This document shows positions 15,257 through 60,166 of a stretch of 64,000 nt of DNA, piece by piece; position 1 is the stretch's first letter, and each line of letters opens with the position of its first letter. Made by a program: the position numbers and the translations under genes. Origin of the DNA: an uncultured virus (IMG/VR IMGVR_UViG_3300006620_000021) (taxonomy: Duplodnaviria; Heunggongvirae; Uroviricota; Caudoviricetes); the IMG/VR virus record IMGVR_UViG_3300006620_000021, one strand, 5' to 3'. The notes below the pieces were generated by a model that saw only the letters and a list, made by a program, of their open reading frames with translations, had not been told where the DNA came from and did not search any database.

Positions 15257-15309
15257 ATCAGGTGGTGTGAGAATGGGTCTTACGTGTCCCCCGACACTGC
15301 CCCAGTGGA

Positions 15310-15567
15310 TCAGATCCCGTCGTGCCAAGCAGTGCCGAACGCCTGCTGCATGTCCAGGTCGGAGGGTTCCCACTCCTCCTGCATGATCTCATTGATGCGC
15401 TCTTCCATGTCGCCGTTGCACTGGATGCCGTAGACCTGCTCTACCCAGTCGGCATAGTCGTCCCATTCCATACCAGGGTTCTCCTGGATGAACTCACGGG
15501 CACCTGCCTCCCAGTTGATGTCGTAGATCTCTCCAGGCATGTCTTGGATCTCAAGAAGGATGGACAT
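15310..15567 (-). CDS. Highly acidic early protein
   Basis: 85 aa, about 22 D/E, no Lys, 2 Arg; own upstream promoter. Confidence 0.7.
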   Translation of the reverse strand: MSILLEIQDMPGEIYDINWEAGAREFIQENPGMEWDDYADWVEQVYGIQCNGDMEERINEIMQEEWEPSDLDMQQAFGTAWHDGI

Positions 15568-15635
15568 TGTTCTGTGGTGTGAACTGATTTAATTGTAGCA
15601 GTTCAGGGGGCGTTGCCACCCCCCAAACCTTAAGA

Positions 15636-15893
15636 TCACATAAAGCATGCAGCGAGGCGGTCACGCTTGCGGATCATGCCGCTGGCGATGTGCCACTTGC
15701 TACGCTTGAGGGTCTTGTGGTGCAGTTCTGCCCAAAGGACTCCATCGGATTCCATGTCACACATGACGGCGTGGATGGTGCCTTTGTGGCGTCGTGGGTC
15801 CAGACCAAGAGACTTGACCAGTTCACTGCATGTTGCAGGTCCATGGTTGATGAGGTGGGAGCGGACTTGAGTGCGGATGATTGAAGCGAGCAT
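15636..15893 (-). CDS. Winged-helix-like DNA-binding protein
   Basis: HGPATCSELVKSLGL...IHAVMCDMESDGVL...KW resembles a wHTH. Confidence 0.55.
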   Translation of the reverse strand: MLASIIRTQVRSHLINHGPATCSELVKSLGLDPRRHKGTIHAVMCDMESDGVLWAELHHKTLKRSKWHIASGMIRKRDRLAACFM

Positions 15894-15959
15894 GTCATTG
15901 GGTGGGTGGTTGACTTCTAAAGAATACCACGGCGGCGACCCCTGGCAACGGGTCAAACC

Positions 15960-16157
15960 TTAAGATAAAATGAACTTATATTCTAAAGATTTAATACACC
16001 ACCCTGTGCAGGCAGTGATCTCTTCTATAAGATCATCTTCATCATCTGCCTCCCAATCACCTAAAACATCTTCTAATATCTCTTTTTTATGCTCTTCACT
16101 GATAGGATCAAGAGCATCATCGTAATCAAATTCTACATCAGTGACAAGGTACATCAC
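15960..16157 (-). CDS. Acidic hypothetical protein
   Basis: WEADDEDDLIEEITACTGWCIKS. Confidence 0.7.
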   Translation of the reverse strand: MMYLVTDVEFDYDDALDPISEEHKKEILEDVLGDWEADDEDDLIEEITACTGWCIKSLEYKFILS

Positions 16158-19255: not shown

Positions 19256-19297
19256 TGTACTATCCTCCAAAGATCATGATAATGTTCTTTAACTCTA

Positions 19298-43804: not shown

Positions 43805-44038
43805 TCACTTATACAGGGTCTTTGACAAGTCAAGTTCAAATAGTATCTCTTCAATAGTGCCATGATGTTGAGTGCTTTTACGAAGTATATCCTTCTTTTC
43901 CCTAGACTTTTTCATAGTCGTCAAGAATAAAGGTTCTCTTTGTAAGAGCAACATCTCATCCGCTGTGAGTTTATCAAACTCACCCCTGTTGATCTTATTT
44001 ACTATACTAAAGTATTTAATACGTTCGCTAGAGTTCAT
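43805..44038 (-). CDS. Hypothetical protein
   Basis: 77-aa ORF. Confidence 0.55.
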   Translation of the reverse strand: MNSSERIKYFSIVNKINRGEFDKLTADEMLLLQREPLFLTTMKKSREKKDILRKSTQHHGTIEEILFELDLSKTLYK

Positions 44039-44808
44039 AATTTAGACCCGTGTTTAAAATCAATTACAATGACACATCTATGTGCCTTATTAGCAACAAT
44101 TGGTTGTGGCATGACAGGAGAATGATTGATGTGAGAATGATGTATCAATAGAGAATTAGTATCTCCAGGTAGAATGATCTCTTTGTTATCATTCTCAATT
44201 AAAGTTCCATATATCCTAGAGGGATTGTTGAGATAGAATATCATCCCAAGATCAAAATCCTCATGCTTATGTGTATTTCTATAATTTATATACAATTCTT
44301 TCTCATAATCTTCTTCAGTATTTCCCTTCATCCTCTTCGCCCAGTAAGATGCAATCTTATACTCAAGAATCTTTTTATTATTTGTTAATTTGGCATATCT
44401 GTGAAGATGCTTTTTTATCTCACTAAAGAATATAAACCAACTAACTCTATACTTTAACTTCCTAGCAGACAATCCTTGAGTGACCTCAACACTCCTATCC
44501 CATTTATTCGGAGATCTAAGTTCATCATCAATCTCCTCTTCCAATTCATTTAGAACATGAGGTGTGAATATATTGTAAGCTCTGTAAATTGTATTCCCCA
44601 TAAAAGAGAACGTTTCATAATCTCTTTTATCCTTATAATAATCATCCTCAATATGATCTACAGTCGGACATTCTGTTCCAGTCTCTGCTGGTCGGAATGT
44701 CCTCATGTATTCATCACTAATTATCTCATCAAGACGGGTTTCTGGATCAACACCAAGACGATCTGCAAGTCTTTTAATATAATCTTCTTGTTGTTTAGTA
44801 AGATTCAT
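44035..44808 (-). CDS. 2OG-Fe(II) oxygenase-like protein
   Basis: HKH...MIFYL...NSLLI...H...RCVIVIDF. Confidence 0.65.
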   Translation of the reverse strand: MNLTKQQEDYIKRLADRLGVDPETRLDEIISDEYMRTFRPAETGTECPTVDHIEDDYYKDKRDYETFSFMGNTIYRAYNIFTPHVLNELEEEIDDELRSPNKWDRSVEVTQGLSARKLKYRVSWFIFFSEIKKHLHRYAKLTNNKKILEYKIASYWAKRMKGNTEEDYEKELYINYRNTHKHEDFDLGMIFYLNNPSRIYGTLIENDNKEIILPGDTNSLLIHHSHINHSPVMPQPIVANKAHRCVIVIDFKHGSKL

Positions 44809-45404
44809 AGTCTGATATTACCTGCAAGGACTATTCTGTCCTGGTCATTCTGATTTGTTGGAGCGTAATGCATGAGAGCAGAGGGGAATAAAATCATTGA
44901 TCCCTCTTGCACACCTTCTGGTTCATACTCAAGAACGTTCCCATCCTTCATGCTAGTGAATGGTGCCACAAAAGTTGTAGGTAGATGTTTTTCAGCATCA
45001 TATTCTACAAAGACAACAAAACTTATACCGCCAAATCCATGATTATGAACCGCATGATGTTGACCTTGATTATAGATCTGATACCATGCAGTATCAACTC
45101 TGGGTGTTTTACCTTCAAATCCCAATTCTTTTATTGCCAGATCAATATCTTCAAATAAGATATTTTCAATCAAGTAATGGTATCGAGAATCTTTGTGGTA
45201 GTCAGTCCATTGCTCACCAATATTTTCTATTCTCTTCTCACAATGTTGATCAAAAACATCCAACAGTTGCTCTCTCTTATCTTCCCAATTAGTTATGGAT
45301 AGATGCAAAAAAGGTACAACCCAATCCTTAATAAAGTGATTAGTATCATAGGGAACATACCCTTCTTCAGGATGAGCGTGTTTATTTGGAATAAAATTCT
45401 TCAT
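44805..45404 (-). CDS. Putative 2OG-Fe(II) oxygenase
   Basis: HAVHNH, EGSMILFPSALMH and RIVLAGN. Confidence 0.8.
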   Translation of the reverse strand: MKNFIPNKHAHPEEGYVPYDTNHFIKDWVVPFLHLSITNWEDKREQLLDVFDQHCEKRIENIGEQWTDYHKDSRYHYLIENILFEDIDLAIKELGFEGKTPRVDTAWYQIYNQGQHHAVHNHGFGGISFVVFVEYDAEKHLPTTFVAPFTSMKDGNVLEYEPEGVQEGSMILFPSALMHYAPTNQNDQDRIVLAGNIRL

Positions 45405-45567
45405 TACGACGGCGATCAAGGTATTCGATAATTTCAGCTCTCCATTCTAACAGTTCATGATAACAGTGCTGATCATGTGCGTCTTGGCGCAATTCATGGT
45501 CTGGTTTTAATACACTCTCGTAGAAGATGTAGAATGCATCCTTACGTTTTTCATGTTTAGTGTCCAT
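45382..45567 (-). CDS. Conserved hypothetical protein
   Basis: FYESVLKPDHELRQDAH. Confidence 0.7.
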   Translation of the reverse strand: MDTKHEKRKDAFYIFYESVLKPDHELRQDAHDQHCYHELLEWRAEIIEYLDRRRNEEFYSK

Positions 45568-46057
45568 GTTGCTCCTGCATACGTTTTAATCCACCAACCA
45601 AAACTCTTTTTGATCGTGAATACTCTGATTGATGAATAATGTCCGAAGAAAATAATAACACTTTACCTTTGTCTGGTTTTACCCTACAAGGTTCAGATAA
45701 CTTTAAGATGGTGTGCCCATCATTGCAGTCATTCAAATAAAGAATAAAACTAAAATCTTCGTTATGATCATGTTTATGTGGCGTCATAACCCCACCATTA
45801 GAATAATCTACCATATGTAAGTAATAATATTCTAACTTACATTCAGTACATAATTCAACATTTTCTTTAAGTTTGCCAATATAGTTATAAAACTTATCAC
45901 TATGATGTAAATCGAGAAGATTTAATGTGGCAAAACATGATTCACTTAAAGAACTGTTTTTATAGTCCTTGCATATTTCTGGTCTTGCTAAAGAGACCTT
46001 TAAAAGTAAGGTCATATATTCAACAAGATCATCAGTTGTAAAAAACTCTTCTACCAT
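45557..46057 (-). CDS. 2OG-Fe(II) oxygenase
   Basis: HKHD, SFILYLN, FSS.I.H and KRVLVG. Confidence 0.75.
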   Translation of the reverse strand: MVEEFFTTDDLVEYMTLLLKVSLARPEICKDYKNSSLSESCFATLNLLDLHHSDKFYNYIGKLKENVELCTECKLEYYYLHMVDYSNGGVMTPHKHDHNEDFSFILYLNDCNDGHTILKLSEPCRVKPDKGKVLLFSSDIIHQSEYSRSKRVLVGGLKRMQEQHGH

Positions 46058-46278
46058 TACACAAGAAATTGATCGTCCCCATACACTGATCTATACTTCT
46101 CAATTAGAGAGTCTCGCATATCATGATATGGTGTGATATCAATATCATACTCATCACCATAATTCCACTGATCAGTACTTCTGATTGCGGCAATCGCTGC
46201 CTGAATCATAGTCTTCAATCCTTCCTTATCACAAGTGATACTTACCAGAGTATCAGGATGTGGATCGGCGTTCATCAT
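46057..46278 (-). CDS. Hypothetical protein
   Basis: 73-aa ORF. Confidence 0.55.
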   Translation of the reverse strand: MMNADPHPDTLVSITCDKEGLKTMIQAAIAAIRSTDQWNYGDEYDIDITPYHDMRDSLIEKYRSVYGDDQFLV

Positions 46279-46466
46279 TTTTCAATCCTCCAATTAGAAT
46301 CATTATGTTTATTAACACTAAACTTATGTTTAGTGATGGATTCGACATGATACTGACTAGTATCTTCACCATGAATTCTGCAAGAATGAAGATGGTTCAT
46401 GTCCAGTTCAAAAAAGATACGGGCGTTAGGACTAATAGGCGAAACGTAGATAAACTTTGATTTCAT
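46275..46466 (-). CDS. Hypothetical protein (paralog of 14299-14535)
   Basis: YVSPISPNARIFF...ND.NW. Confidence 0.6.
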   Translation of the reverse strand: MKSKFIYVSPISPNARIFFELDMNHLHSCRIHGEDTSQYHVESITKHKFSVNKHNDSNWRIEK

Positions 46467-46685
46467 TGTACGAAAACAGTACCCCTCCTTGATTGTGTGC
46501 TGTGTTTTTTAATGAAGTTACGTGCAGACTTCTCATTCTGACACGTCTTCAGTATCTGACCATTATAGCAGATAACTAAAGATTTGCGACCTGCAAGTGG
46601 AATAGCAGCATAACCATCCTTAGTTACAAATCCATCTTTAGTATGTTTGTAGAAGTTGTAAACTTCCCTCAATTCTTTTTCCATA
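46463..46685 (-). CDS. Hypothetical protein
   Basis: GFVTKDGYAAIP...SARNFI; start approximate. Confidence 0.6.
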
Positions 46686-47123
46686 CTAGTCCTCACAAAA
46701 ACTACAAGTGATTCTAGGTTCAAGGTGAACCGCACTATGAGGAGTTCCTTTATCGATATAAAGGGCATCCCCTGGTAAAAGAATAACCTCTTCTATTGTA
46801 CCATCATTGTCAAGCAAATACTTAATTCTACCCATTGATGCAACAATTAAAACATCATCAGCATCTTCATGCCACCCACCAGTCTCTCCATCATTTACTC
46901 TACTGTAATATATGTGGAACACACCATAACCAATCCTCTTCATTTGAATAAGAATGTTTTGTAGAAGACCTGGTTCAGAATATCCACAATTCACAAGTAA
47001 ACTTGTGTCTCCCCTATCTTCATAAGTTCCTTCCGCGTCTTCTATTTCTTTTTGCCTATCAACATGATCCCATCGAATTCCCTTCAAAAATGGATATGCT
47101 TTACGCTCAACCGAATAACTCAT
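46686..47123 (-). CDS. JmjC/cupin-like protein
   Basis: WHEDADDV...LLPGDALYI.KG.PH...RIT. Confidence 0.75.
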   Translation of the reverse strand: MSYSVERKAYPFLKGIRWDHVDRQKEIEDAEGTYEDRGDTSLLVNCGYSEPGLLQNILIQMKRIGYGVFHIYYSRVNDGETGGWHEDADDVLIVASMGRIKYLLDNDGTIEEVILLPGDALYIDKGTPHSAVHLEPRITCSFCED

Positions 47124-48367
47124 CGTTTTACCGTACTAATTGCTGGTTGTCCCTCTACGAACACTGTATTTACTACATCCTGCAGACGCTTGACTGTAGA
47201 GATTCCAACATTGCTGTAGACAGGAACATGGACAAGTCCAAAGGACTTCTTGTAATCTTCAAGTTTACCTGGTGTAAGTTGTCCTTGCTGTATTCTCTTT
47301 ACATCATCAAGATGTAAACGGAGAACGCGACCGACAGACTGACACATCTCAATAACATTCATCTGACGCATCAGAACCAATGAGGTGAGACCAGGAACAG
47401 AGATACCCTCACTCAAAATAGAATAATGAATAACAATAAACTTTTTGTCAGGTTGATCACCATACTCACGAACAAGGGAGAAGAACTTCTCACGACTAAT
47501 TTTGTTATAGTTGTGGAATGCACCCTGCCTACTAGTTATCCATAAAATATCATATCCCATCTCCCTTGCCTCTTGAAGGAAGGTGGTTTTGATAATCATG
47601 TTGCCCAACACCGTAGTGTTAGGAGCAGCAATCAGGACCTTCTGCATATGATCTTCATTCCGAAGAGTCCTCAATAGAGTCATACAATCACGTTGTGCTG
47701 CTTCCTCAACACTCTTCTCACGAACAGCAGCAATAGGAATAGCGTTGATCTTAGGAGGAAGGATAGAACCGTTCTTAATCAAGCGTGGTGCAGGAACATT
47801 GTAGATGATCCCACCAAACACACTGTCATTCATCCCATGTTTTTTAGTAGTGGCAGAATACTTAGGAGTAGCAGTGAAGAAATAGCAGCGGCGAGAAGCA
47901 GCAGCGTAATGCCTGGTAGCACCAAAGAAATTCTTTTTAACCGAATTGTGCGCTTCATCGAAATAGATGCAGTCCACAACTATTTTAGATTCTTGGATAC
48001 GATGAAGCGAATGATACGTAGTAAAAATTAGCTTATGGCAGGTTGTGTGATAATCCCACTTACTAATCATGCTGGGATCAGTGGTGCAATGGTATGGAAG
48101 ATCATGACCACCAGAATGGACGTGAAGGACAGCAGCATTCTTAATGTGCTGAGTAAACTCTTTAGACAGTTGACGAGCAAGCAAGAGGCGAGGAGCAACC
48201 ACAACAATAGTCTTGCAACCCTCCATCTTGTTCATCTCACGCATTGCATCAGCAATCGCAATAAAGGTCTTACCACCACCAGTAGGAACCACCACAGTAC
48301 CTTTGGACTTCATGTCCATGACATCAAGTGCTTCTGCCTGGTGCGGACGAAGTTGCATTGAACTCAT
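47120..48367 (-). CDS. SF2 DEAH helicase (type III Res-like)
   Basis: LRPHQ, PTGGGKT, DEAH, TATP, ILSEGI and QSVGRVLR. Confidence 0.9.
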   Translation of the reverse strand: MSSMQLRPHQAEALDVMDMKSKGTVVVPTGGGKTFIAIADAMREMNKMEGCKTIVVVAPRLLLARQLSKEFTQHIKNAAVLHVHSGGHDLPYHCTTDPSMISKWDYHTTCHKLIFTTYHSLHRIQESKIVVDCIYFDEAHNSVKKNFFGATRHYAAASRRCYFFTATPKYSATTKKHGMNDSVFGGIIYNVPAPRLIKNGSILPPKINAIPIAAVREKSVEEAAQRDCMTLLRTLRNEDHMQKVLIAAPNTTVLGNMIIKTTFLQEAREMGYDILWITSRQGAFHNYNKISREKFFSLVREYGDQPDKKFIVIHYSILSEGISVPGLTSLVLMRQMNVIEMCQSVGRVLRLHLDDVKRIQQGQLTPGKLEDYKKSFGLVHVPVYSNVGISTVKRLQDVVNTVFVEGQPAISTVKR

Positions 48368-48380
48368 GTGAATACGAATA

Positions 48381-48797
48381 TTATACCAGGAATTGATCTA
48401 CCGTGACGGGTCCTGTAGTTCCATCAAATCTGTAATGATACTGAAGTGCATCTGCACAGACAAAATGTGGGTGATCTGCAGGGATGTCAAGTCTCCTACA
48501 CATCTCTTTGTGATTGTCTTCCATCAACTCCACAGCATACAGCATATTGTTGATGATGTGATCTTTGCTGTGATATTCCTGCAGTGCCTCACATAAACAA
48601 ACAATGAAGTTACCACTGCCAGCACAATTATCCATGAACTTAGAGTCAGGATCCTTCAGTTGTGATGCAGGTATCTCCCGAATCATCTGTTCAATTAAAG
48701 CAATAGGAGTAAAGACCTCCTGTGTTTGCTTAATCCTCTCATCAGAGCGTTCAATGGTAGACCCATGCTGCTGATTGTGACGATTCTTAGATGACAT
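48381..48797 (-). CDS. Methyltransferase SAM-binding half (no catalytic motif IV)
   Basis: EVFTP (motif X), FMDNCAGSGNF (motif I), YAVEL and CADAL; no NPPY/DPPY. Confidence 0.8.
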   Translation of the reverse strand: MSSKNRHNQQHGSTIERSDERIKQTQEVFTPIALIEQMIREIPASQLKDPDSKFMDNCAGSGNFIVCLCEALQEYHSKDHIINNMLYAVELMEDNHKEMCRRLDIPADHPHFVCADALQYHYRFDGTTGPVTVDQFLV

Positions 48798-50160
48798 TAG
48801 ATCTCTCCAAGTAGTTCAGTTCTTCGGATGTAAAACCAAATTGCTGAGGTAGATCCTTGTAGACTGTGATGTCAGGTACTTCCGCATTCTTAATAGCAGG
48901 AGTAAATCCCGAAGTCCTTTTATAATTCTCCACAAAAAATTGAATGATCGGATTGTCAAAGATCTCGCTAAGACGCGAACCTTCTTCTTCCGAAGCAACA
49001 GGACACCACACGTTAAGCATACCCACAAATCCATTAGAGACGAACCTCTTCTTATATGTGCTGGAGAACGGGACGATGAACTTCAAAACATCACCAGTAG
49101 TTGGAAGTACATTTGTGCGAGCAACCTTATTGCCAGTTTTAAACACCTCATACTTACCATCAGGAATATAATCATCATTGGCAATCTCCTGACCAATCTT
49201 CAGAGGGATGCGAGGATGATTAGAATTAGCAATCTTCTCAAGAATAGAATACTTGAGAGCAGCATCACCAAAAACAGGCAGACCATCACGAAGGTCCCAA
49301 GTAAAGATCCCATCATGAGTAATCACAGTAGTCTTACCCTGATATGGTTCATTCACTAGATGCCAACGACAAATGTCCACACCTTCCGTAAAGTAATCAT
49401 CAGCAGTGTAATCAATCAGTTTAAGATTGTAGATAGTAGAGAACAACTGCATGAACTTCTTACCCTTGCCAGTGTTACCCAACACTGATGCAGGAGTAAC
49501 CTCACACATGTCACCACCAGGAGCAAGCAACTCAAGATGTTGCTCTACAATCTTTGTCCACAACTTATTGTTCCTTGCCTTCTTGGTAGGATCGTTGTAT
49601 GGAGGATTGGCAAGAATGGCGGTGAACTTCATGTCTGGGTTGGTGGATACTACTTCAATCTGCTTGTCAATATATCCTACACGATTACGATGACTATCGC
49701 AACTTTCCCATACAGTGAGACTGTCGGGATTGATTCCTCGTTCTAGAAGGCGAGCAGAGTGTGATCCACTAGGATCTCCAAACATGTATGTCTTGCTCAT
49801 ATCTTGACAGTCATTGATCATTGTATCAAGGAGCGAAGTGGGGATCGATTGCTGAATAGCAGATGAGACAGATAGACCGTTAATAGTCTCAGAGACCGAT
49901 TGTCTGATGCTCTTCTGAATGCTGTTGGAGACCAGACCGATGCGACGAGTCAGAAGTTCCATACTGTGAGGATTCTTAGAGATAACCTCAGAGAGGATTC
50001 CTTCTTTGTCACCAGTTACAGAAGAATAAACATCGGATCCAATCACATCGTTGATGGAGTACACATTCCGACCACTACGAATGATGTAGAACATGGTCAG
50101 AGGGATGGATTCCAGGAGTGCCTTGACAGTCTGCTTCTTCAGAGTGTCAAGGTCATCGAC
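48787..50160 (-). CDS. Eco57I-like N6-adenine methyltransferase catalytic/TRD region, probably translated as a -1 frameshift extension of the upstream helicase
   Basis: ILANPPY, LLAPGG...VTP; the frame is open upstream of the annotated ATG (50094) as far as the slippery site. Confidence 0.8.
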   Translation of the reverse strand, partial: VDDLDTLKKQTVKALLESIPLTMFYIIRSGRNVYSINDVIGSDVYSSVTGDKEGILSEVISKNPHSMELLTRRIGLVSNSIQKSIRQSVSETINGLSVSSAIQQSIPTSLLDTMINDCQDMSKTYMFGDPSGSHSARLLERGINPDSLTVWESCDSHRNRVGYIDKQIEVVSTNPDMKFTAILANPPYNDPTKKARNNKLWTKIVEQHLELLAPGGDMCEVTPASVLGNTGKGKKFMQLFSTIYNLKLIDYTADDYFTEGVDICRWHLVNEPYQGKTTVITHDGIFTWDLRDGLPVFGDAALKYSILEKIANSNHPRIPLKIGQEIANDDYIPDGKYEVFKTGNKVARTNVLPTTGDVLKFIVPFSSTYKKRFVSNGFVGMLNVWCPVASEEEGSRLSEIFDNPIIQFFVENYKRTSGFTPAIKNAEVPDITVYKDLPQQFGFTSEELNYLERSNVI

Positions 50161-50181
50161 TTTTTTACGCGATCAGTCTCC
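50121..50181 (-). promoter_or_regulatory. Programmed -1 ribosomal frameshift signal
   Basis: GGAG, 11 nt, in-frame A_AAA_AAG, 7 nt, then hairpin CCTTGACA-C-TCTG-AAGAAG-CAGA-C-TGTCAAGG. Confidence 0.8.
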
Positions 50182-51932
50182 ATCACGACACAACTTTGAT
50201 TGTTAGCACCATTGTCATTTAACTGCGTCTCCTTCAAGACTGTCGTAAGAGCAGACTTGAGGTTGAAGTTGAAGTCACTCAGACCACTGAGATCAAGAGA
50301 CTCAACAATGCTGGTCACAGTAGAGATGCTGCTCTCAACATCTGCTGCTAGAGCATCTTCAAATGCTTCCTTACTCAGTTCCTGGAACCCATCGTTCCAT
50401 TCATGGATGTTGGTGAAGTCTACGACGCTGAATTGAGACAATGAAGGGTTGCTATCACATGCGAGTTGGAACGCTGTATGAAGAGCACGTAGGCACCTCT
50501 GAGCGTCAAAATCAATGACCCACCAGTCATGATCACCAGATCCACCACGGAATGCGAACTGTGTCCAGAACTCAATCGATTCTCCACCACGGCAATTGAT
50601 AACAGTATCAATCTTCTCAGCAGTCACACCCAGAACATTTGCAGACTGAGTGATGATCAATGCCTTGGGATGCTCATCCAAGAATAGAGTGATATCTTCC
50701 TGATCTTTCTTAGCATCAGAGGTAACTACCAGTGCAGGATAGTAACACTCAACCAACTTTTGGAATGCATGACATGCCTTGACGCTAGGCAGTGCCATCA
50801 TGTGATATGTACCCTTCAACAAACGATCACCGATACGGATATTGCGTTGTGGTCCAAAGTAATTGCGAACAAACTCTCTGACCAGATCCTCATGCAAGAA
50901 CTCATTTCCTTTCATGGTGAAGATGTTCTTCATTGCATCAGGATCGTTACCAAAGATCTCTTGATATGCAGAAGTTTGATACTTAGCAAAGGCAACATTC
51001 ATCTTAGGACGTTGGAACACCCCATTCTGAACATCCAGTTGCTCATCAAAGTAGGTATAGACAAACTTCTGGTTGTCTTCGGGGAACATCCAACAAAGTT
51101 TATGAGCAGTTCCAGAGATGTAGCAAATACGAGTATCAAGTTCTTCGCGCAGTTTGACGAACTGATCAGCAGTGCCGCCAATATGTGCCTCATCAAAAGC
51201 AACAAAGTCAACGTTCTTGATCTTGTCCAGACGCTTCAAGCAAGTCTGAACCGTACCCCAAAGAACAACATTTACATCACGTTGACTCCAGTATTCAAGG
51301 AAGGTCTCCCAACCAGGATCTTTGAGAGAGACGTACTTGACTGAAGGGAAATACTTGTTTGAGTCCTTCTTCCAAGATGCCTCAGGAGACTTCTGACGGG
51401 AGCAAACAAGAGATACCTTATATTCGCTATCAACAATGTGCTTAAGAACCATTGCAGACTTACCTGCACGGCACTTAGCGAACAGCAGGAACTCGTTACT
51501 AGTACACCATGCAATCTTATTGAGGAACTTCTGCTGATATGGACGTGGTTTGAATTCTTCATACACCTTCTCCTTACCAGAGAAGAACTTCTCATGGATC
51601 ATCTCACCGATGATATCCAAGTTGTATCGCTTTGGATCATACTCAAAAGTCTCAGAGTTCTTAGCACCAAGCCTCTTAATACCAACTTGTTTGTCCAACC
51701 ATGCATGAATAATCTTATCGTGACCAGCATCATGACCATCATCACGAGTAGATACATCCTCCCACCAACGGCAGCGAATATACTTGGATTCAAATTGAGC
51801 TCCACGCTGATTTGCCTTACCATAATCGCTTCCACGATGCCGATGCTCCCAAGCGAAGCGAGTCTGACCAACATTGAAGGATGGTACAGTGATATTTTCG
51901 GCAGTGTCGAAGTAGATGTTGACGAGGGACAC
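50139..51932 (-). CDS. Nuclease (GIY-YIG/T5orf172-like)-SF2 helicase protein
   Basis: N-terminal NVGQT.R...HD..IH..L...ETF; PRPYQ, AKCRAGKS, FDEAH, SGTA and QFAFR. Confidence 0.8.
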   Translation of the reverse strand: MSLVNIYFDTAENITVPSFNVGQTRFAWEHRHRGSDYGKANQRGAQFESKYIRCRWWEDVSTRDDGHDAGHDKIIHAWLDKQVGIKRLGAKNSETFEYDPKRYNLDIIGEMIHEKFFSGKEKVYEEFKPRPYQQKFLNKIAWCTSNEFLLFAKCRAGKSAMVLKHIVDSEYKVSLVCSRQKSPEASWKKDSNKYFPSVKYVSLKDPGWETFLEYWSQRDVNVVLWGTVQTCLKRLDKIKNVDFVAFDEAHIGGTADQFVKLREELDTRICYISGTAHKLCWMFPEDNQKFVYTYFDEQLDVQNGVFQRPKMNVAFAKYQTSAYQEIFGNDPDAMKNIFTMKGNEFLHEDLVREFVRNYFGPQRNIRIGDRLLKGTYHMMALPSVKACHAFQKLVECYYPALVVTSDAKKDQEDITLFLDEHPKALIITQSANVLGVTAEKIDTVINCRGGESIEFWTQFAFRGGSGDHDWWVIDFDAQRCLRALHTAFQLACDSNPSLSQFSVVDFTNIHEWNDGFQELSKEAFEDALAADVESSISTVTSIVESLDLSGLSDFNFNLKSALTTVLKETQLNDNGANNQSCVVMETDRVKKSMTLTL

Positions 51933-51958
51933 GAATGTAAGAATTGCTGTACCCCGTA

Positions 51959-52010
51959 ATTATAACCCATAAAAAAGGGGGGCAATGCCCCCCTGTGACA
52001 GTTATGTAAC
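51959..52010 (-). promoter_or_regulatory. Early-type promoter with embedded terminator hairpin
   Basis: TAACTGTCACA half-palindrome, GGGGGGC-ATT-GCCCCCC-TTTTTT, then TATAAT at 51959-51964. Confidence 0.7.
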
Positions 52011-52205
52011 CTACCCCTCTATGGAGTGCGATATGCATTCTTTACTGTTGTCATCCCAGTGTCTTACTGCATTGGCAACGATAGCAACATTAGTAACCAT
52101 GTAAGCGACAAGAATAAAGGTGCGTATGCCAGCAATAGTATCTGCCTCTCTATCTGTTCGTCCATCTTTTTCTCCTAATGCCTTCGCCCAAATCCGCCAC
52201 ATCAA
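52011..52205 (-). CDS. Conserved small membrane protein
   Basis: WRIWAKALGEK...IVANAVRHW. Confidence 0.7.
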   Translation of the reverse strand: MMWRIWAKALGEKDGRTDREADTIAGIRTFILVAYMVTNVAIVANAVRHWDDNSKECISHSIEG

Positions 52206-55200
52206 AGATTATCCAACCTCTCCGCTATACAGACCCTCCTAATAAGATCTTTTAAATCTTCATTATCCATACATTGACACTTAACTGTCTCCTTCAATTC
52301 ATTGATCTGTTCTTGCTGCTCTTTAATTGCTTCAATCAAGAGAGCAACCATGTTCTGATATGCAACAGATTTAACTCCATCACCTGCCTCAAGAACCAAT
52401 TCGGGGATAACCTTCTCAACTTCTTGTGCGATTACACCAATTGAACGTTCTGGATCACCTATTCTATTGAAGTACACACCACGCAAGTCGAGAACTTTAT
52501 CGAGTGCGTTAGTGATACCAACAACATTCTCCTTAAGTCTTTCGTCAGAGTTTGCAGTAACGGTTCCTGAGAAGGTTGCATTACCATCTTTGTTGATTCT
52601 CAGTCTTTCCAGAGGATTGGATGGACCAGAATCCTGAGTACCAAAACTCAATCCAAACTGACCAGAGGTTCCTTCAGATACACCTTTGATGAATCCACGC
52701 TCACCATCATTACTAATATCTCTACCCTCAAACTTAATTCCACCATAGAAGTAAGAACTATTAAGTGCTTGGTCAGTTTGACTAAACCTGACATAGTTAC
52801 CTTGAGTGTCACCTGTGGTGTTTTTATCCGTTGTGACAATAACATCATTTACGAATGTGGAGACACCAACTGCATTGAAGGTATTAACATTAACCTGCTG
52901 ATTAAAGGTAGTAATACCAGTCTCAACAATGAATCCATTAGTAACGTTCCAAATCAAGGAACCCATTCTAAATTCAACGTTGTTCTCGAAGAGAACTGGA
53001 CCAGCAGCATACAGTGAGTATCCTGCCTTTGCCTGACTAGTTTCAATACCAACTTGTGCTGTTGTTGAGACACCAACACCATCAAACACCCAAACGTCAG
53101 ATACGTTTGTTAACTGACTACCATCACCCTTGAATGTACCACTCCAAAGACCAACATAATAATTGTCTGGATTTGCTTGGATAGGAGCAAACTTCTTCCA
53201 GTTATTATCATTAGTATAGACCCATCCAAGTTCACCACCAGATCTTGGTTCAGCATCATATACAACGTTACCAACGTTTCCAGCAACTTGTGGTGTCGAG
53301 ATACCAACAGTATACTCTCTAGCAATAGTCTGATCACCCTGAATCAGAACACTATTACCTTCAATCGGAGCATTTGCAGTAACTTTCTTATTGAATACCG
53401 CAGGTCCGTTGAACTCAGAGATGATAACATTATCCTTACCACCATCAACAATCAGTCCCCTATTAATTGTAAGTTGTTCACTAGAGGTTACATCAAATCC
53501 GATCTCACCACTATCACTAGTGATGTCTTCACCCCTTACAGTAGGAACTGGTGCATTAGTAACTAAGTCTTTACCAGTTGTACCACTAGTGAATTTGTTA
53601 ACTGTGTAAGCGTTACCTCTATCATCAAGTCCATTATAGAATGGTGTACCACCATCAATAGATACAGACTGAGATAACAATCTCTCGACCTGCTTAAACT
53701 GTCTATCCTGTCTCTCTGGGAGTGCGGTAGAGTAGTTACCAGGACCGAATCCAAGATATTCAAAAGTATGTCCAGATGCACGTTGAATAGAGTTTCTTCT
53801 AAATTCAACTGGTTTAAAACTAACTTTCTTAAGTACAGATCCAATTGGGTGCTGCTGTTTTTGTGATCCAAACAATCCACGGAAGACATCAATAGCAGTC
53901 TCACTACTAACAGACTGACTAATACGCATGATCTCATTATTCATAACGAGATAATCACCAACATCCCAACCAGTATGACTTGCATTTTGTACAGTCAAAG
54001 TGTTAAGAGTAGTGTCAGTTAGAGCAGCAACAATATTCGTTTGAATACCAGCGTACTGAGGAACCAATCTAGCAGATACTGCTTCATCGTTAAAATCAAT
54101 ACTATCTGCCTGTGATGTAATACCCTTAGGATAAATTATTCCACCACCAGTTGGTGATACTACCGTAGTACCGACACCAACTTTAACTGCAAGACTATCG
54201 ACAGTGTAAACAGTATCAACAGTGAAGTCACCGTTTAATATATCCTCAGAAAATCCACCAAACTTAATGTTGTTACCAACCAGCATTCCGTGAGAGTTGT
54301 CACAAGTAACACTAGCAATACCAGTCAGGTTATTGTAAGTAATTGAGGTAATACCTACAGTCTTACCTGTCATGTAGGCAGTAACATCCGAAAGAATCGC
54401 TGCAGATATATTACTCAATCCATTAGTATTGATACCAGCGACTGCTTGTGCTCCCGTGAATGGGAACTTAGCAAAGATCGTAGATGCAGAAGATACATTT
54501 ACATTGACATCATCTCCTACAGTGACGCCTGTAATTGTATAGATGTTATTGTAATCTACAAAACGATCATCTCTAATACCATCAAGTCTGATGGCATCAC
54601 CAACACTGTTATGAATTTCTTGAACAGTAACATAACCTTGAACAAATCCTCCAGTAGAACCAATACCAGTAACAGCAAGAGTATTACCAATACCATATGC
54701 AGATCCACCATCAACAATCTTGACAGCAGTAATTGCACCATCAACATCAATTTGAACGTTTGCTGTAGCAAACTTACCTGTTACAGAGTTACCAAAACCA
54801 ACTAAGTTAGCATTATAAAGAGTCTGAATACTTCCAGAACCATTACCATAATTTAAACCAGTACTAGTAACACCAACTTTAGTGATTGCATTGAATCCAT
54901 GGTCACCTAAAGTTTGAATGGTGTGAGCAATACCACTCTGAGATAAAACATCTGCAACATCAAATCCAATCTTGATATCTCTAATATTCTTATTAATTAC
55001 CTCTTTAGTCAGGTTTTTCTGAGGATCGTTAACCTCAGTAAGTCCAAGAGGAGTTGGAAGAGCAAATGTTCTCGTTTGCTCTGGGTCAGAGACTGGATTG
55101 TCTCTATCAAGTTGTGGGAAGAGATTCTTAAGTGGTTGCTGATATCTTAAACCCTGGAATGGAGTTACAACAGGTTTAGAAGATGCATCAATTAAAGTTA

Positions 55201-58096
55201 AGTGATAAACACCATCTTTTGCATTTGGAATATACTCCTGAACTTCTTCCTTCTTGTATACAAATAATGTGTTATTGAGATTCTTTCTCTCATACCTAGG
55301 AAGATCCGTGGTTCTTATATCAGTATTATTATCAAACTGTCCAGGGTTAGTATTAAGACCAACAGTAAACGCCTTTCTATCTGGTCTTCCAGTTACCTGG
55401 AATACACCGTTAAATCCAGTGTTTGCAATACCAGTAGTGTTTGCTGTAGATACAACATTGAAGATCTGAACCTGAGAACCAGCAGACAACTGGTGCGGTA
55501 CTTCTGTGTGTATAGTAGCAATACCACTAGTAGCATCCCAGACAGCATTTGAGAGCATTCTGGGGTTTCTTAATTCAGAGCTGTTAGACAGAATAATAGG
55601 ACTTACACTCTTAAACTTAGAGATTTCATTATCAGTAAGTCCAACTGTTTGTCCAGATTCCTGAAGAACAAAAGAATCTTCTGGTGGTCTACCAAGAACA
55701 GCAGAATCTCTCGGAACAACATATCTAACTTTGTAGATTTTATCTTCAAGAGATCTATTATCTGGAGTTCTAGAGATGAAGGTCTTTGGAGATGCTTCTC
55801 CAAGAGACAATGTTCCTAATCCAACAATGGTGCTGTAAATACTATTTTTTGCACTATCTCCACTTACTTGAACATACCATTGCTGTTGAGTTTGATCATA
55901 TTGTACTGGGTGAGCAATATCTCCAGACTTCTTATCAGATACTCTAGATTCAATTTGAAGAATACCACCTTTACTGTTTACAGTTACAGCAGAAGCACTG
56001 ATTGTATCGTTAAGTGTTTGTCCTAACTTAATTTGGTCAGTGTTAATACCAGCGGTGATTGCATAATAGAGTCTATTATGATCCAAACCATCAGGAAGTT
56101 CTCCATCATCACTCAAAATTCTGAGAGATTCTCCACTACTAAATGAATGTGGTTGTGTAAGAGTGAATATATTAGAGGTAATACTATTGATACCAATAGC
56201 AGTTCTACCAACAGTATGTACTTTGGTAGCAGTTGTCTCAAAGACACCAGTGCCCTGTGTTTCGGGCATAATAATATCTGCTTCTTTAGTCTCAGGTTGA
56301 CCATTAATGTTGATGATGACTTTCAATCTGTCATCATTTTTTGCACCAATTCTATATCCCTGAATTACAGACTGTGGTGCAACGTTTGCATTGAACTGAT
56401 TATACAAGTACAGTCTGCTGGTTTGTCCAACAGAAATTGTTCTTGCAACGTCGATTGCTTCCCACTCAAGGTTTACTTCATCTGTAGTAATTTCTTGTGG
56501 TGGGAGGATGTGGGTGATAAATCCAGTATCATCTCTAGGGAAGGCATTATTTCTAAATCCAACACAAATTAATGCTTTTGCACCAAAGTTGGAGTTAGAG
56601 TTGGTGATGGACATGTCACCACCAGTATCCGACAGGAAGTGGTTAGCATATCCAATAGCAAATACAGAGACCAACTGCAAGAAGGCATCATTAGATCCCT
56701 TAATGTGGAAGTTCTCATAATCTGGCTTGTAAACGGCAGATGTATCTGTGTGTAAGTTTTCTACAGCGGTAGAATCTTCATATACACCTGATATTGCATT
56801 ATATTTTACAAATGCTTCATCATCTTTCTGAAGTCCGATACCCGTGAACTGTGCCACAACCATCGACTTAAATCCAGTCGCCTTGCTACCATCAGCATGG
56901 AGACCACACATACCAAATACTGATCTCAATGAACAGTTAAAGATGTATGGAGATGCAGAGGTTACAGAGTCAACGACGATGTTAAGTGTGGCAGATCCAG
57001 CAACAATAGAAGGTAGTGGATTTGCTGGAGCATTAGATACCTCGTAATTAATTCTTGTTTTACTCTCAACAGAATTAATTACAAATGAACCATTATATCC
57101 ACCAGTAGGAACACCCTCAATTCTGATAGGAGTATCAACGTCCAGTCCATCAAGTTCTTCTACAAGATCAACAGTAATGGTGGTGTTTGCAGTTACACCA
57201 TTACCCGCCTTAATACTACTAATACCAATATTCTCACCTTTAGAACCAACAATTCTAAATTCATCAACCTTGGTCTGAATATCAACCCCAGTATCTGGAG
57301 TGTCAGGACTAATCTCTCTTCCACTGGAAGCACCAAATGCTAGACCGATTCTTTGATAGTAAAGATCTAAGTCAGTCCTTGTGGTATTATAGTTGAGGAA
57401 TGTATCGTTAAAAGCAACAGGGTTTACACCATCAGCATACTCAAAACAAGTTAACTTGTGGTGAGAGAAGTTGGGTACAAAAATAGAAGTGCTATAGTCT
57501 TTGAATACCCTAGAACTTGGGTCAGCATCAAAGAAAGTAAACTGATAGAAGTAACAAGTACCTGTTACACGGAACAGACAAGTTCTATCAATAGTATTAT
57601 CAGAAGGATCTGGTACAAACTTTGGTCTAATTTTAGTTTTACGAAGATCCAATCCAACGATGGATGTACCACGGGGAATAATCACACCCCCGTATACAGA
57701 GTTCATCTTGTAGAGATCGTTGTCTGGATCATCAATATCAAAATTAGTATCCAAAGTAAATTCGGATAGCGCATTGGATGCAGATCCACTGCGAGTCAAA
57801 TAATTATTTCCACCCTGTGGATTATCATGTATAGGTATCCAACCTGGCCTGTTATCAATCAGGTGCTCGCCAGGATATACAATGATAGTTGTTCTACTGA
57901 ACCTATCATTATCAAATCCCTTCTGGTAAGAGAATCTTGCTGCTTCAATTAATGCTCTTTGGATAGTTTTGAAGGGTCTAACCAAAGAGTTACCTTGGTT
58001 TTCAATACTATCTGTAGAGTCAATACTTGAAGGATCAACGTAAAGGATGTCTCCTCTACTATTTTTCAGAAAATTATCTAAGCGACTAAGACCCAT
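52202..58096 (-). CDS. Large virion/tail-fibre protein with C-terminal Peptidase_S74 chaperone
   Basis: MGLSRLDNFLKN, PFKTIQRALIEAARFSY; SDERLKEN..GVIAQEVE..LLIEAIKEQQ; late promoter at 58127-58133. Confidence 0.85.
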   Translation of the reverse strand: MGLSRLDNFLKNSRGDILYVDPSSIDSTDSIENQGNSLVRPFKTIQRALIEAARFSYQKGFDNDRFSRTTIIVYPGEHLIDNRPGWIPIHDNPQGGNNYLTRSGSASNALSEFTLDTNFDIDDPDNDLYKMNSVYGGVIIPRGTSIVGLDLRKTKIRPKFVPDPSDNTIDRTCLFRVTGTCYFYQFTFFDADPSSRVFKDYSTSIFVPNFSHHKLTCFEYADGVNPVAFNDTFLNYNTTRTDLDLYYQRIGLAFGASSGREISPDTPDTGVDIQTKVDEFRIVGSKGENIGISSIKAGNGVTANTTITVDLVEELDGLDVDTPIRIEGVPTGGYNGSFVINSVESKTRINYEVSNAPANPLPSIVAGSATLNIVVDSVTSASPYIFNCSLRSVFGMCGLHADGSKATGFKSMVVAQFTGIGLQKDDEAFVKYNAISGVYEDSTAVENLHTDTSAVYKPDYENFHIKGSNDAFLQLVSVFAIGYANHFLSDTGGDMSITNSNSNFGAKALICVGFRNNAFPRDDTGFITHILPPQEITTDEVNLEWEAIDVARTISVGQTSRLYLYNQFNANVAPQSVIQGYRIGAKNDDRLKVIININGQPETKEADIIMPETQGTGVFETTATKVHTVGRTAIGINSITSNIFTLTQPHSFSSGESLRILSDDGELPDGLDHNRLYYAITAGINTDQIKLGQTLNDTISASAVTVNSKGGILQIESRVSDKKSGDIAHPVQYDQTQQQWYVQVSGDSAKNSIYSTIVGLGTLSLGEASPKTFISRTPDNRSLEDKIYKVRYVVPRDSAVLGRPPEDSFVLQESGQTVGLTDNEISKFKSVSPIILSNSSELRNPRMLSNAVWDATSGIATIHTEVPHQLSAGSQVQIFNVVSTANTTGIANTGFNGVFQVTGRPDRKAFTVGLNTNPGQFDNNTDIRTTDLPRYERKNLNNTLFVYKKEEVQEYIPNAKDGVYHLTLIDASSKPVVTPFQGLRYQQPLKNLFPQLDRDNPVSDPEQTRTFALPTPLGLTEVNDPQKNLTKEVINKNIRDIKIGFDVADVLSQSGIAHTIQTLGDHGFNAITKVGVTSTGLNYGNGSGSIQTLYNANLVGFGNSVTGKFATANVQIDVDGAITAVKIVDGGSAYGIGNTLAVTGIGSTGGFVQGYVTVQEIHNSVGDAIRLDGIRDDRFVDYNNIYTITGVTVGDDVNVNVSSASTIFAKFPFTGAQAVAGINTNGLSNISAAILSDVTAYMTGKTVGITSITYNNLTGIASVTCDNSHGMLVGNNIKFGGFSEDILNGDFTVDTVYTVDSLAVKVGVGTTVVSPTGGGIIYPKGITSQADSIDFNDEAVSARLVPQYAGIQTNIVAALTDTTLNTLTVQNASHTGWDVGDYLVMNNEIMRISQSVSSETAIDVFRGLFGSQKQQHPIGSVLKKVSFKPVEFRRNSIQRASGHTFEYLGFGPGNYSTALPERQDRQFKQVERLLSQSVSIDGGTPFYNGLDDRGNAYTVNKFTSGTTGKDLVTNAPVPTVRGEDITSDSGEIGFDVTSSEQLTINRGLIVDGGKDNVIISEFNGPAVFNKKVTANAPIEGNSVLIQGDQTIAREYTVGISTPQVAGNVGNVVYDAEPRSGGELGWVYTNDNNWKKFAPIQANPDNYYVGLWSGTFKGDGSQLTNVSDVWVFDGVGVSTTAQVGIETSQAKAGYSLYAAGPVLFENNVEFRMGSLIWNVTNGFIVETGITTFNQQVNVNTFNAVGVSTFVNDVIVTTDKNTTGDTQGNYVRFSQTDQALNSSYFYGGIKFEGRDISNDGERGFIKGVSEGTSGQFGLSFGTQDSGPSNPLERLRINKDGNATFSGTVTANSDERLKENVVGITNALDKVLDLRGVYFNRIGDPERSIGVIAQEVEKVIPELVLEAGDGVKSVAYQNMVALLIEAIKEQQEQINELKETVKCQCMDNEDLKDLIRRVCIAERLDNL

Positions 58097-60094: not shown

Positions 60095-60166
60095 AGCGGA
60101 GTATCGGAATCGAACCGACGACATCTAACTTGGAAGGATAGCGTTCTACCGCTGAACTAACTCCGC
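60095..60166 (-). tRNA. tRNA-Gly(TCC)
   Basis: GCGGAGT acceptor, CTTCCAA anticodon loop, GGTTCGATTCC T arm. Confidence 0.93.

Follow-up and report, generated by a model that had tools for sequence, protein, structure and literature searches.

A putative Type ISP-like accessory cassette in a marine T4-like cyanophage, with a candidate -1 recoding site and a separately encoded, predicted SAM-binding half

The closest described counterparts of the locus analysed here are the Type ISP restriction enzymes LlaGI and LlaBIII, in which an Mrr-family PD-(D/E)xK nuclease, an SF2 motor, a gamma-class N6-adenine methylase and a TRD follow one another; LlaGI is about 1570 aa in size. Monomeric gamma-class N6-adenine methylases such as CamA, M.BseCI and M.TaqI carry all of their motifs on one chain, and M.AquI and M.EcoHK31I are two-subunit C5 methyltransferases with the methylase fold distributed over two polypeptides. 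The -1 frameshift that gives rise to tau and gamma from Escherichia coli dnaX occurs at the heptamer A_AAA_AAG, with a Shine-Dalgarno (SD)-like element about 10 nt upstream and a hairpin 6-7 nt downstream. Circularly permuted DNA methyltransferases have been explained by a permutation-by-duplication model (Jeltsch 1999; Bujnicki 2002), which we follow in the form cited in PMC3320104.

The window, i.e., the whole 64-kb stretch of DNA that was analysed, derives from a marine T4-like, Kyanoviridae-like cyanophage. A sequence-only reading had proposed a phage-encoded restriction-modification-like island, and our analysis supports an accessory cassette of this kind. As for the gene order given there, the four ORFs, the frameshift and the 11-nt overlap stand, while the early-type promoter and the nuclease label are weak. 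The four genes all lie on the minus strand:

50139 to 51932, minus strand: P1, 597 aa with a GTG start, nuclease-like domain and motor
48787 to 50172, minus strand: P2, NPPY methylase, 461 codons open, of which ATG 50094 opens 435 aa (48787 to 50094)
48381 to 48797, minus strand: P3, 138 aa with motifs X, I, II and III and three strands only
47120 to 48367, minus strand: P4, 415 aa, ResIII/DEAD helicase, a core cyanomyovirus gene outside the cassette

We think it likely that the cassette encodes a phage accessory Type ISP-like enzyme, in which P1 and P2 are joined by -1 programmed frameshifting, together with P3 as a cofactor subunit. The joined protein would consist of a GIY-YIG-like nuclease domain, an SF2 DEAH motor, a gamma N6-adenine methylase and a C-terminal TRD; normal decoding would yield the 597-aa nuclease-motor protein, and -1 slippage the complete enzyme, about 1048 aa long. 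This is the Type ISP domain order, which occurs on a single chain in in-frame relatives, but in the window only if the -1 shift operates. Compared with LlaGI and LlaBIII (PDB 5ffj, 4xqk), the nuclease is GIY-YIG/T5orf172-like, the window protein of about 1048 aa is phage-encoded and would be completed only via the -1 shift, and the window adds a stand-alone SAM-binding half. Judging from its family, the enzyme would probably perform strand-specific adenine methylation coupled to translocation-dependent cutting of unmodified DNA of the host or a competitor phage, or it may instead protect from host restriction.

The N-terminal ~110 aa of P1 are GIY-YIG/T5orf172-like, with NIY and FNVG separated by 11 aa, a conserved R, H76 and E94, and the remainder is an SF2 DEAH motor carrying CRAGKS and FDEAH. 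P1 matches phrog_22930 (3.7e-185) and, over residues 114-482, phrog_16 (8e-17), as expected of an SF2 helicase-like ATPase; no sequence match was found in Pfam, PADLOC, NCBIfam or PDB. The earlier label of the N-terminus as a nuclease is transitive and weak: two of ten homologous N-termini match the GIY-YIG superfamily (T5orf172, 1.4e-5; MUG113, 4.2e-5), whereas the window's own N-terminus matches neither. An Mrr-family PD-(D/E)xK nuclease is not indicated for P1, since those homologous N-termini that have matches point to the GIY-YIG superfamily.

P2 is built of a linker, a motif X-like segment (IPTSLLDTMI, residues 84-93), a non-canonical motif I (FGDPSGSHS, residues 105-113; 49756-49782), LTVWES, the catalytic motif IV NPPY (residues 163-166; 49597-49608) and a TRD. 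The N, P and P of NPPY are invariant across 27 P2 homologues, and the Pfam Eco57I match (9e-7) starts at HMM position 53. Motif I is indeed degenerate, as had been noticed: GDPSGSHSA lacks the GxG and the F of the canonical DPxxGxGxF, and in lacking GxG it differs from CamA, M.BseCI and M.TaqI, although the loop DPSGSHS resembles EPACAHG of TaqI. The AF2 model (pLDDT 85.8 overall) has beta1-beta4 in order, and its N-half forms its own beta1-alphaA-beta2-alphaB-beta3 at pLDDT 88-91. The best fold matches are the monomeric enzymes, with superpositions of about 290-320 residues each: model residues 1-327 on CamA 43-577 (VIA Z 13.5), M.BseCI (Z 12.5) and TaqI 35-409 (Z 12.2); the LlaGI MTase-TRD follows at Z 10.2 with 293 residues aligned. 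In the model, P2 is thus a CamA/TaqI-like gamma N6-adenine methylase of complete structure, has X-I-II-III-IV..VIII-TRD on one chain, and shows no evident gap that P3 could fill. As the N-half is predicted to fold in place and is also under purifying selection (dN/dS 0.10-0.13), P2 may bind SAM alone. Among the outcomes that the sequence-only reading had named as speaking against it was a complete SAM pocket in the model of the NPPY domain; at the level of the fold, this one is therefore half realized.

The 138-aa ORF said to overlap the methylase gene by 11 nt is confirmed (48381-48797 versus 48787-50094). The P2 stop and the P3 ATG share ATGTCATCTAA, GGAGAG lies a few bases upstream, and the overlap, kept in all close relatives, indicates that P3 is translationally coupled to P2. 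P3 contains EVFTP (27-31), FMDNCAGSGNF (54-64), YAVEL (87-91) and CADAL (114-118) and, again as claimed, no motif IV; its DNCAGSGNF is a canonical SAM-binding motif I. Residues 21-95 match Pfam N6_Mtase (4.3e-5), P3 also matches phrog_4376 (8e-62), and the P3 profile matches CamA residues 25-165 (9e-7), CamA being the best match by sequence as well as by fold. The model is a half-Rossmann fold (helix X plus beta1-beta3). There are 1359 homologues, nearly all of 133-139 aa, and 14 columns of a 31-sequence alignment are invariant, motifs I and II among them. Its sequence and model make P3 the SAM-binding half of a methylase, strongly conserved and encoded on its own. Unlike in CamA, M.BseCI and M.TaqI, a second canonical X-I-II-III module is here a separate protein; the subunits of M.AquI and M.EcoHK31I, by comparison, are of the C5 class, are divided at another point and have no helicase or nuclease in their context.

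A decayed P3 fragment that does not co-occur with a methylase is ruled out by this conservation and by its neighbourhood, since a motif-IV methylase gene lies within two genes of P3 in all 54 assessable copies (48 directly upstream, five one gene further and one downstream). N-half-less orthologues of P2 also exist, and all of them (P0138, P0156, P0157, P-SSM2 gp036, L017 and ACG-2014f gp191) adjoin P3 or share its genome; in the two-piece forms, P-SSM2 gp036 and L017, the protein starts at M(K/R)FTLAIGNPPY. Elsewhere the two halves occur as single-chain permuted fusions (P0167, P0201 and phrog_11371, which spans both halves), with P0167 matching P2 157-261 at 7e-10 and P3 16-124 at 1e-27. The fusions P0167 and P0201, as Rosetta stones, and gene adjacency would be indirect signs that P2 and P3 may associate. 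The N-half-less NPPY proteins before P3 and the permuted fusions mean that the P3 family includes two-piece methylases, and sister-phage pairs and fusions alike mark the P3 family as a trans-acting, or permuted, cofactor subunit: it would be the only cofactor half for an NPPY/TRD protein in sister phages and fused behind one elsewhere. The split methyltransferase that had been proposed is therefore found in relatives (P-SSM2 gp036, L017), whereas P2 of the window is not a bare catalytic half. Because P2 models complete with its own beta1-beta3, the models do not support a strict split in the window, where the arrangement is N-C + N.

The family matches the permutation-by-duplication series as laid out in the source cited above: normal order in L058, L059 and P0204, a doubled N-half in P0169, N-C + N in the window studied here, C + N encoded by separate genes in P-SSM2 and L017, and C-N fused in P0167 and P0201. 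A difference from the model in that form is that intermediates here are separate, translationally coupled genes rather than one chain. The methylase part provides a rare natural series for this model of DNA methyltransferase evolution. With its conserved, non-canonical N-half retained in P2, the P2-P3 pair would represent a partial-duplication stage, in which P3 is most likely still a binding partner of P2 that provides the SAM site or duplicates it. The methylase part also yields a candidate adenine methylase of two subunits that is widespread among cyanophages of the ocean, with possible roles in self-protection, attack on host DNA or phage-phage exclusion.

It is possible, but in our view unlikely, that the window nevertheless holds a strictly split enzyme, in which motif I of P2 is dead, P3 is the sole SAM site in trans and both chains are needed. 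The P2 loop without GxG and F, set beside the invariant motifs I and II in 31 P3 sequences, would fit, as would the fact that no N-half column reaches 90% identity among 25 P2 homologues. So would the N-half-less orthologues, all of them beside P3 or in a P3-bearing genome, and S-CAM7, in which one P3 copy sits by an N-half-bearing methylase and the second by an N-half-less one. Against it stand the complete Rossmann fold of the P2 model, which aligns on TaqI from residue 35, the N-half dN/dS of about 0.1, and the recurrence of GDPxGxHS...VWE in distant paralogues, which argues for function and not decay. Doubtful to a greater degree is a self-sufficient P2, with P3 serving N-half-less NPPY proteins encoded in other parts of the phage genome, outside the 64-kb window, or acting as a regulator or SAM sensor. 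P2 folding in the model as a complete enzyme would allow this, and ACG-2014f gp191, an NPPY protein starting at motif IV about 104 kb from P3, offers a precedent. However, the window contains no other NPPY ORF, all close relatives retain the 11-nt coupling, and the two distinct P3 copies of S-CAM7 each lie beside their own methylase gene, which suggests cognate pairs.

The frameshift reported between the helicase and the NPPY region is real: the P1 frame stops at 50141-50139 and the P2 frame is open from 50172, so that passing from P1 to P2 requires a -1 shift within the overlap of the two frames, 50142-50172. The following signals surround it:

50178 to 50181, minus strand: GGAG, Shine-Dalgarno-like, 11 nt 5' of the slippery heptamer
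50160 to 50166, minus strand: slippery heptamer A_AAA_AAG, the proposed -1 shift site
50121 to 50152, minus strand: hairpin with an 8-bp outer stem (CCUUGACA/UGUCAAGG) and a 4-bp inner stem

We consider it probable that the P1/P2 junction is a conserved -1 recoding site (GGAG, 11 nt, A_AAA_AAG, 7 nt, hairpin), first described here; a literature search found no paper describing the recoding site or the methylase feature. The heptamer is in register with the P1 0 frame (GTA AAA AAG, 50168-50160) and has the form X_XXY_YYZ. GGAG is invariant although the overlapping codon varies (ATG/CGG/CAG/CTG). The hairpin, whose structure was derived from the window sequence itself, begins 7 nt 3' of the heptamer and encloses the UGA of P1. 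Its outer stem is kept in all 21 distinct sequences, and with L015 included compensatory changes occur in four pairs, a result matched by one of 500 shuffles; folding of the single sequence gives only a modest z-score (-1.95). A heptamer with an SD-like element upstream and a predicted structure downstream is the dnaX-type arrangement, but the polarity would be reversed in the window, where the long product needs the shift.

The -1 arrangement is common to the window and all eight of the closest IMG/VR loci found via P3, in each case with a 1-nt deletion directly after GTAAAAAAG. A pattern scan added further loci and, once 10 chance matches had been removed, brought the unique environmental sequences to 15 with the frameshift and 10 in frame; the pattern demanded AAAAAAG and part of the hairpin 5' arm, so the conservation of heptamer and hairpin in the scanned set is partly built in, and only the P3-derived loci are unbiased. 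Contigs of four runs from four studies had no indel at the frameshift site; of the runs listed as containing the stretch, none is recorded as RNA. The signals are also retained in the 10 in-frame alleles, whose -1 frame meets a stop codon two codons in, after one further codon as for dnaX gamma. As the in-frame alleles keep both the signals and the early stop, either allele could yield one and the same pair of products, but with the opposite default. Single-chain in-frame homologues include MA01 (1074 aa), L005, L012, L013 and L015, and the heptamer is absent in the more distant in-frame relatives MA01, L013, L045, L047 and L055.

If the recoding is real, programmed frameshifting would set the ratio of motor-only to motor-methylase forms of a restriction-like enzyme, and the natural pair of in-frame and -1 alleles would offer a direct test of indel buffering by an efficient slippery site. 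Tentatively, and short of an even chance, we suggest that a highly efficient dnaX-like site makes the downstream frame effectively ambiguous, hence the existence of both natural alleles with the same two proteins, and that the locus also preserves an N-C + N permutation stage with the canonical cofactor half as a separate subunit.

Improbable by comparison is a tolerated gene split, with translation of P1 finishing at its UGA and re-initiation at ATG 50094 producing P2 as a protein of its own. That ATG does sit 45 nt past the P1 stop, and helicase and methylase are separate genes in S-CAM7 and ACG-2014f, but the natural split of S-CAM7 is at a different place. Moreover, homology to in-frame fused homologues extends 5' of the P2 ATG. 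The 22 codons from the heptamer to this ATG are coding-like in the P2 frame of frameshift alleles (dN/dS 0.026; nine of 11 variable sites synonymous). They are without any reachable start codon, the P2 frame 5' of them has no ATG, GTG or TTG, and in-frame alleles, in which this Met is internal, conserve it just as well. Transcriptional rather than ribosomal slippage is just as improbable, for although A-runs are known slippage sites and an extra A in the mRNA would give the same protein, the run has six A's only, and the site has conserved elements that act as stimulators of ribosomal slippage, the SD-like GGAG at 11 nt and a hairpin at 7 nt.

Beyond the recoded unit, two SF2 helicases had been assigned to the island, and both P1 and P4 do carry a DEAH motif (FDEAH in each), with a Pfam ResIII match of 3.1e-19 for P4. 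P4 does not hold up as a component of the system: it is present in 419 phage records, all with at least 80% coverage, versus 46 for P3, and is therefore a core cyanomyovirus gene and not part of the island. In S-CAM7, ACG-2014f and S-SKS1 it lies far from P3. Two signals precede P1:

51959 to 51964, minus strand: TATAAT -10-like box, 27 nt 5' of the P1 start, candidate cassette promoter
51976 to 51994, minus strand: intrinsic terminator, GGGGGGCATTGCCCCCC plus a T-run

A consensus scan listed no full sigma-70 site at 51959-51964, and what stands of the proposed early-type promoter is a TATAAT just past the intrinsic terminator, which, according to the terminator scan, ends the upstream tail-fibre unit.

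The sequence-only reading had placed in this region a methyltransferase split between P2 and P3, the two complementing each other in trans, within a restriction-modification-like island with two SF2 helicases. The region's genes are all on the minus strand; the P2 stop overlaps the P3 start by 11 nt, GGAGAG lies a short way upstream, and 13 nt lie between P3 and the P4 start.

Features of the region in the window
51976-51994: intrinsic terminator upstream of P1
51959-51964: TATAAT, after the terminator and upstream of P1
50139..51932, minus strand: P1, SF2 DEAH motor protein with putative nuclease-like N-terminus, 597 aa
50181-50178, minus strand: GGAG, 11 nt upstream of the heptamer
50166-50160, minus strand: heptamer A_AAA_AAG
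50152-50121, minus strand: predicted hairpin, starting 7 nt downstream of the heptamer
48787..50094, minus strand: P2, NPPY methylase with TRD, 435 aa; frame open up to 50172
48381..48797, minus strand: P3, SAM-binding half, 138 aa
47120..48367, minus strand: P4, ResIII/DEAD helicase, 415 aa

In its AF2 model, which covers residues 95-435 (pLDDT 85.8, pTM 0.70), P2 has the whole fold of a gamma-class methylase plus a TRD. The model contains beta1 (102-105), alphaA, beta2 (126-129), alphaB, beta3 (147-149) and beta4 (157-162), a block with pLDDT 88-91, and it superposes on CamA 43-577 (Z 13.5, rmsd 5.2, 321 residues), M.BseCI (Z 12.5), TaqI 35-409 (Z 12.2), BrxX/PglX, DrdV, and the MTase-TRD portions of LlaGI (Z 10.2) and LlaBIII (Z 9.8). 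The modelled beta1-beta3 and the TaqI superposition argue against taking the NPPY region for a bare catalytic half. In sequence searches, the Pfam Eco57I match (9e-7) starts only at HMM position 53, a profile of 27 homologues has its matches (type I M proteins, TaqI, BsaXI) in the vicinity of motifs IV-V, and a single-sequence PDB search gave nothing useful. A motif X-like helix (IPTSLLDTMI) precedes the methylase fold, and motif I (GDPSGSHSA, without GxG and F) is degenerate, as first noticed. The N-half (motifs X, I, II and III) has 0 columns at 90% identity among 25 homologues and is constrained (dN/dS 0.10-0.13); the GDPxGxHS...VWE pattern recurs in distant paralogues.

P3 possesses SAM motifs and lacks motif IV, as had been proposed: its profile matches CamA 25-165 (9e-7), a stretch that runs up to 'FDYIVG', directly ahead of the NPPY of CamA, and its AF2 model (pLDDT 81; core 85-98) comprises helix X and beta1-alphaA-beta2-alphaB-beta3, and no more. 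The best fold matches of this model are N-terminal parts of CamA (E about 2e-3), a single-sequence PDB search of P3 returned nothing useful, and full-length methylases of 464-466 aa encoded in two homologous loci (L058, L059) have N-termini 33% identical to P3. A profile-profile comparison of P3 with the P2 N-half aligned motifs X and I as expected, at a strength (probability 3%, E 0.014) not counted as homology. The 1359 P3 homologues span 75-242 aa, nearly all being 133-139 aa, and in an alignment of 31 sequences at 34-90% identity 14 columns are invariant and 43 nearly so, including EVxT, AGxGxF and YxVE.

Homologous loci L001-L062 hold 63 P3 copies, of which 54 were assessable after removal of 2 distant full-length enzymes and 7 copies without upstream sequence. 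A motif-IV ORF (NPPY/F or N-x-P-Y/F) ends within about 40 nt of the P3 start in 48 of the 54, counting L047 and L054, which a motif pattern search missed but other parts of the analysis showed. The methylase lies one gene further upstream in 5/54 (MA01, Bellamy, L041, L043, L050), and in the remaining copy (ACG-2014f) helicase and methylase genes are just downstream. The anticipated co-occurrence of P3 with an NPPY gene across phage genomes is thus borne out and, along with a dN/dS of 0.08 and the invariant columns, speaks against P3 being a decayed fragment. In Bellamy, L041, L043 and L050, the gene between methylase and P3 encodes a 187-aa phrog_7683 protein (5e-58; L041 2981-3544; Bellamy gp87 = L062 3445-4008), in which a GIDGRG...VHQHKF pattern is, by eye, reminiscent of PD-(D/E)xK nucleases; it had no match in PADLOC or NCBIfam.

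On gene content, the P3 family includes genuine two-piece methylases, because some partners start at motif IV and permuted fusions occur. P-SSM2 gp036 (193 aa) and the L017 protein (189 aa) start at M(K/R)FTLAIGNPPY, with frames closed 14-20 codons upstream, and their orthologues in L019 and L031 have the N-half; database proteins P0138, P0156 and P0157 and ACG-2014f gp191 likewise start at motif IV. An exhaustive profile search (4110 matches at E <= 0.001) recovered fusions that a word-index search had missed (0/59 candidates, a false negative). In P0167 (399 aa), a permuted single chain, residues 2-99 match P2 157-261 (7e-10) and residues 267-376 match P3 16-124 (1e-27, 41% identity); P0201 is a single chain of similar permuted order, and phrog_11371 joins a catalytic half (positions 2-248) to P3 (positions 272-362). 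P0169 (444 aa) and P0182 (302 aa) carry two tandem X-I-II modules, followed in P0169 by FDVIVGNPPY, so that P0169 is a member of this methylase family with its N-half doubled, and the nuclease-helicase-methylase chains P0204 and P0212 have a P3-like N-half in normal order. The tandem, normal-order and permuted forms correspond to stages expected under permutation by duplication of methyltransferases, as outlined in PMC3320104.

The split methyltransferase first proposed is therefore seen in relatives such as P-SSM2 and L017, although in the window P2 models with its own N-half. The window has the 'N-C + N' stage, in which P2 retains its N-half beside P3, and the role of P3 in P2 activity is putative. 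Complex prediction for P2 66-435 with P3 and SAM, run without controls, gave ipSAE values of 0.00 and 0.01 (mark 0.32), which count neither for nor against pairing. In ACG-2014f, gp191 (L110 1501-2406; MKFDVVIGNPPY) is ~104 kb from the sole P3 gene (gp051, L109 3498-3902), and for this reason the cofactor half may act on unlinked partners. S-CAM7 (L003 1-3483, 9384-10399) has two P3 copies, one after a helicase (705 aa) and a methylase (348 aa) split at a point other than the window's, the other after an NPPY protein of 205 aa in which just 29 residues precede motif IV.

The frameshift noted between P1 and the NPPY region is confirmed. P1 and P2 form one 1074-aa protein in MA01 and are also in frame in L005, L012, L013 and L015; in the window their frames overlap only within 50142-50172, and a -1 shift is needed to pass from P1 (GTA AAA AAG at the overlap) to P2. 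Compared with in-frame relatives (GTAAAAAAGTCTGATGACC), one base is missing right after the heptamer in the window and in 8/8 closest IMG/VR relatives, a set unbiased for the slippery site because it was retrieved via P3. A -1 slip would give ..DRVKK-VDDLDTLKKQ.., collinear with ..ERVKKSDDLDTLKKQ.. of in-frame alleles. No indels at the site were found in contigs of 4 runs from 4 studies, 2 of them possibly the window's source.

A pattern scan of IMG/VR and metagenomes found 13 + 33 loci; with duplicates and 10 chance matches without homologous flanks removed, the unique sequences number 15 with the frameshift and 10 in frame. Since the scan demanded AAAAAAG and part of the hairpin 5' arm, it says nothing about how conserved these elements are. 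Across the 22 codons from heptamer to P2 ATG, frameshift alleles have dN 0.012, dS 0.49 and dN/dS 0.026 (25/28 pairs usable), and variable columns (n=11) comprise 7 third positions, 2 Leu-synonymous first positions and 2 giving V/A at the junction codon. As there is also no ATG, GTG or TTG upstream in the P2 frame, this stretch appears to be translated in P2's frame and reachable only by a shift from P1.

Candidate stimulators flank the heptamer. GGAG is invariant in 25/25 sequences, its first G being the third base of ATG, CGG, CAG or CTG. The predicted hairpin (-16.8 kcal/mol centroid; z -1.95 for an 80-nt piece) has an 8-bp outer stem that pairs in 21/21 distinct sequences. With L015 added (protein 59% identical; stem CCCUAAC/GUUAGGG), 4 pairs are changed on both sides versus 0.8 expected, a number reached by 1/500 shuffles; the slide control favours the hairpin because the window itself supplied the structure. 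In 10/10 in-frame alleles and L015 the -1 frame reads AAA AAA GUC UGA/UAA, so the shared signals would yield a truncated motor-only protein, much as the dnaX -1 frameshift yields a truncated product. The heptamer is absent at the equivalent position in MA01, L013, L045, L047 and L055, and the putative recoding device is thus clade-specific.

For P1, the helicase part of the proposed nuclease-helicase stands, with matches in PHROGs to phrog_22930 (3.7e-185, function unknown) and helicase phrog_16 (8e-17, residues 114-482) and with Walker A CRAGKS and FDEAH motifs; searches of Pfam, PADLOC, NCBIfam and PDB (single-sequence) gave no match. Over its first ~110 residues P1 aligns with homologues that have in common 'IY', a spacing of ~11 residues, 'F/L-x-h-G', an Arg that is conserved, and the invariant residues H76 and E94. 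Two of 10 homologous N-termini match the GIY-YIG superfamily domains T5orf172 (1.4e-5) and MUG113 (4.2e-5), whereas the window's own had no match in the same search, so 'nuclease-like' is a weak, transitive label; a profile of the P1 N-terminus found nothing in PDB.

The relatives are T4-like cyanophages (S-CAM7, MA01, P-SSM2, S-SKS1, Bellamy, ACG-2014f). The sole megablast match of the region to phages is 150 nt to S-CAM7, and the exact stretch is present in marine metagenomes of several studies, 2017 to 2025, with none of the listed datasets containing it recorded as RNA. By tblastn against 50,697 phage records, P4 matched 419 (all at >=80% coverage), P3 46, P2 35 and P1 8, and P4 is 9-20 kb from P3 in S-CAM7, ACG-2014f and S-SKS1. 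P4 was accordingly rejected as a component: judged by this distribution, it is a core cyanomyovirus helicase adjoining a variable insert, and not the system's second helicase. No further motif-IV ORFs or partner-class homologues were found within the 64-kb window, and the literature searched described neither the cassette nor any frameshifting in it.

Type ISP enzymes have the same domain order as P1-P2. By analogy, the system would methylate phage DNA and couple translocation to cutting of unmodified DNA, or protect from host restriction. TRDs and architectures differ strongly between phages, which fits a specificity arms race.

Directly downstream of P4, a run of small cupin, JmjC-like and 2OG-Fe(II) oxygenase genes (44035-47123, minus) encodes proteins of 145 aa (JmjC_2/Cupin_2), 166 aa (2OG-FeII_Oxy_3), 204 aa (2OG-FeII_Oxy_5) and 257 aa (weak phrog_81 match). 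At 52202-58096 (minus) lies a gene for a 1964-aa protein, probably a tail fibre given its C-terminal Peptidase_S74 intramolecular chaperone domain (8.5e-15), with a 64-aa ORF (52011-52205) between it and the terminator. Elsewhere in the window are a 402-aa ORF (18062-19270, minus) with both beta-ketoacyl synthase domains (PF00109 6.6e-28, PF02801 8.8e-22), encoding a condensing enzyme of fatty-acid or polyketide synthesis; a GC-rich patch at 14001-16000 (0.49 versus about 0.35-0.44 elsewhere); a DUF7178 protein at 13398-14078 (6e-42); and a tRNA-Gly(TCC) gene at 60095-60166.
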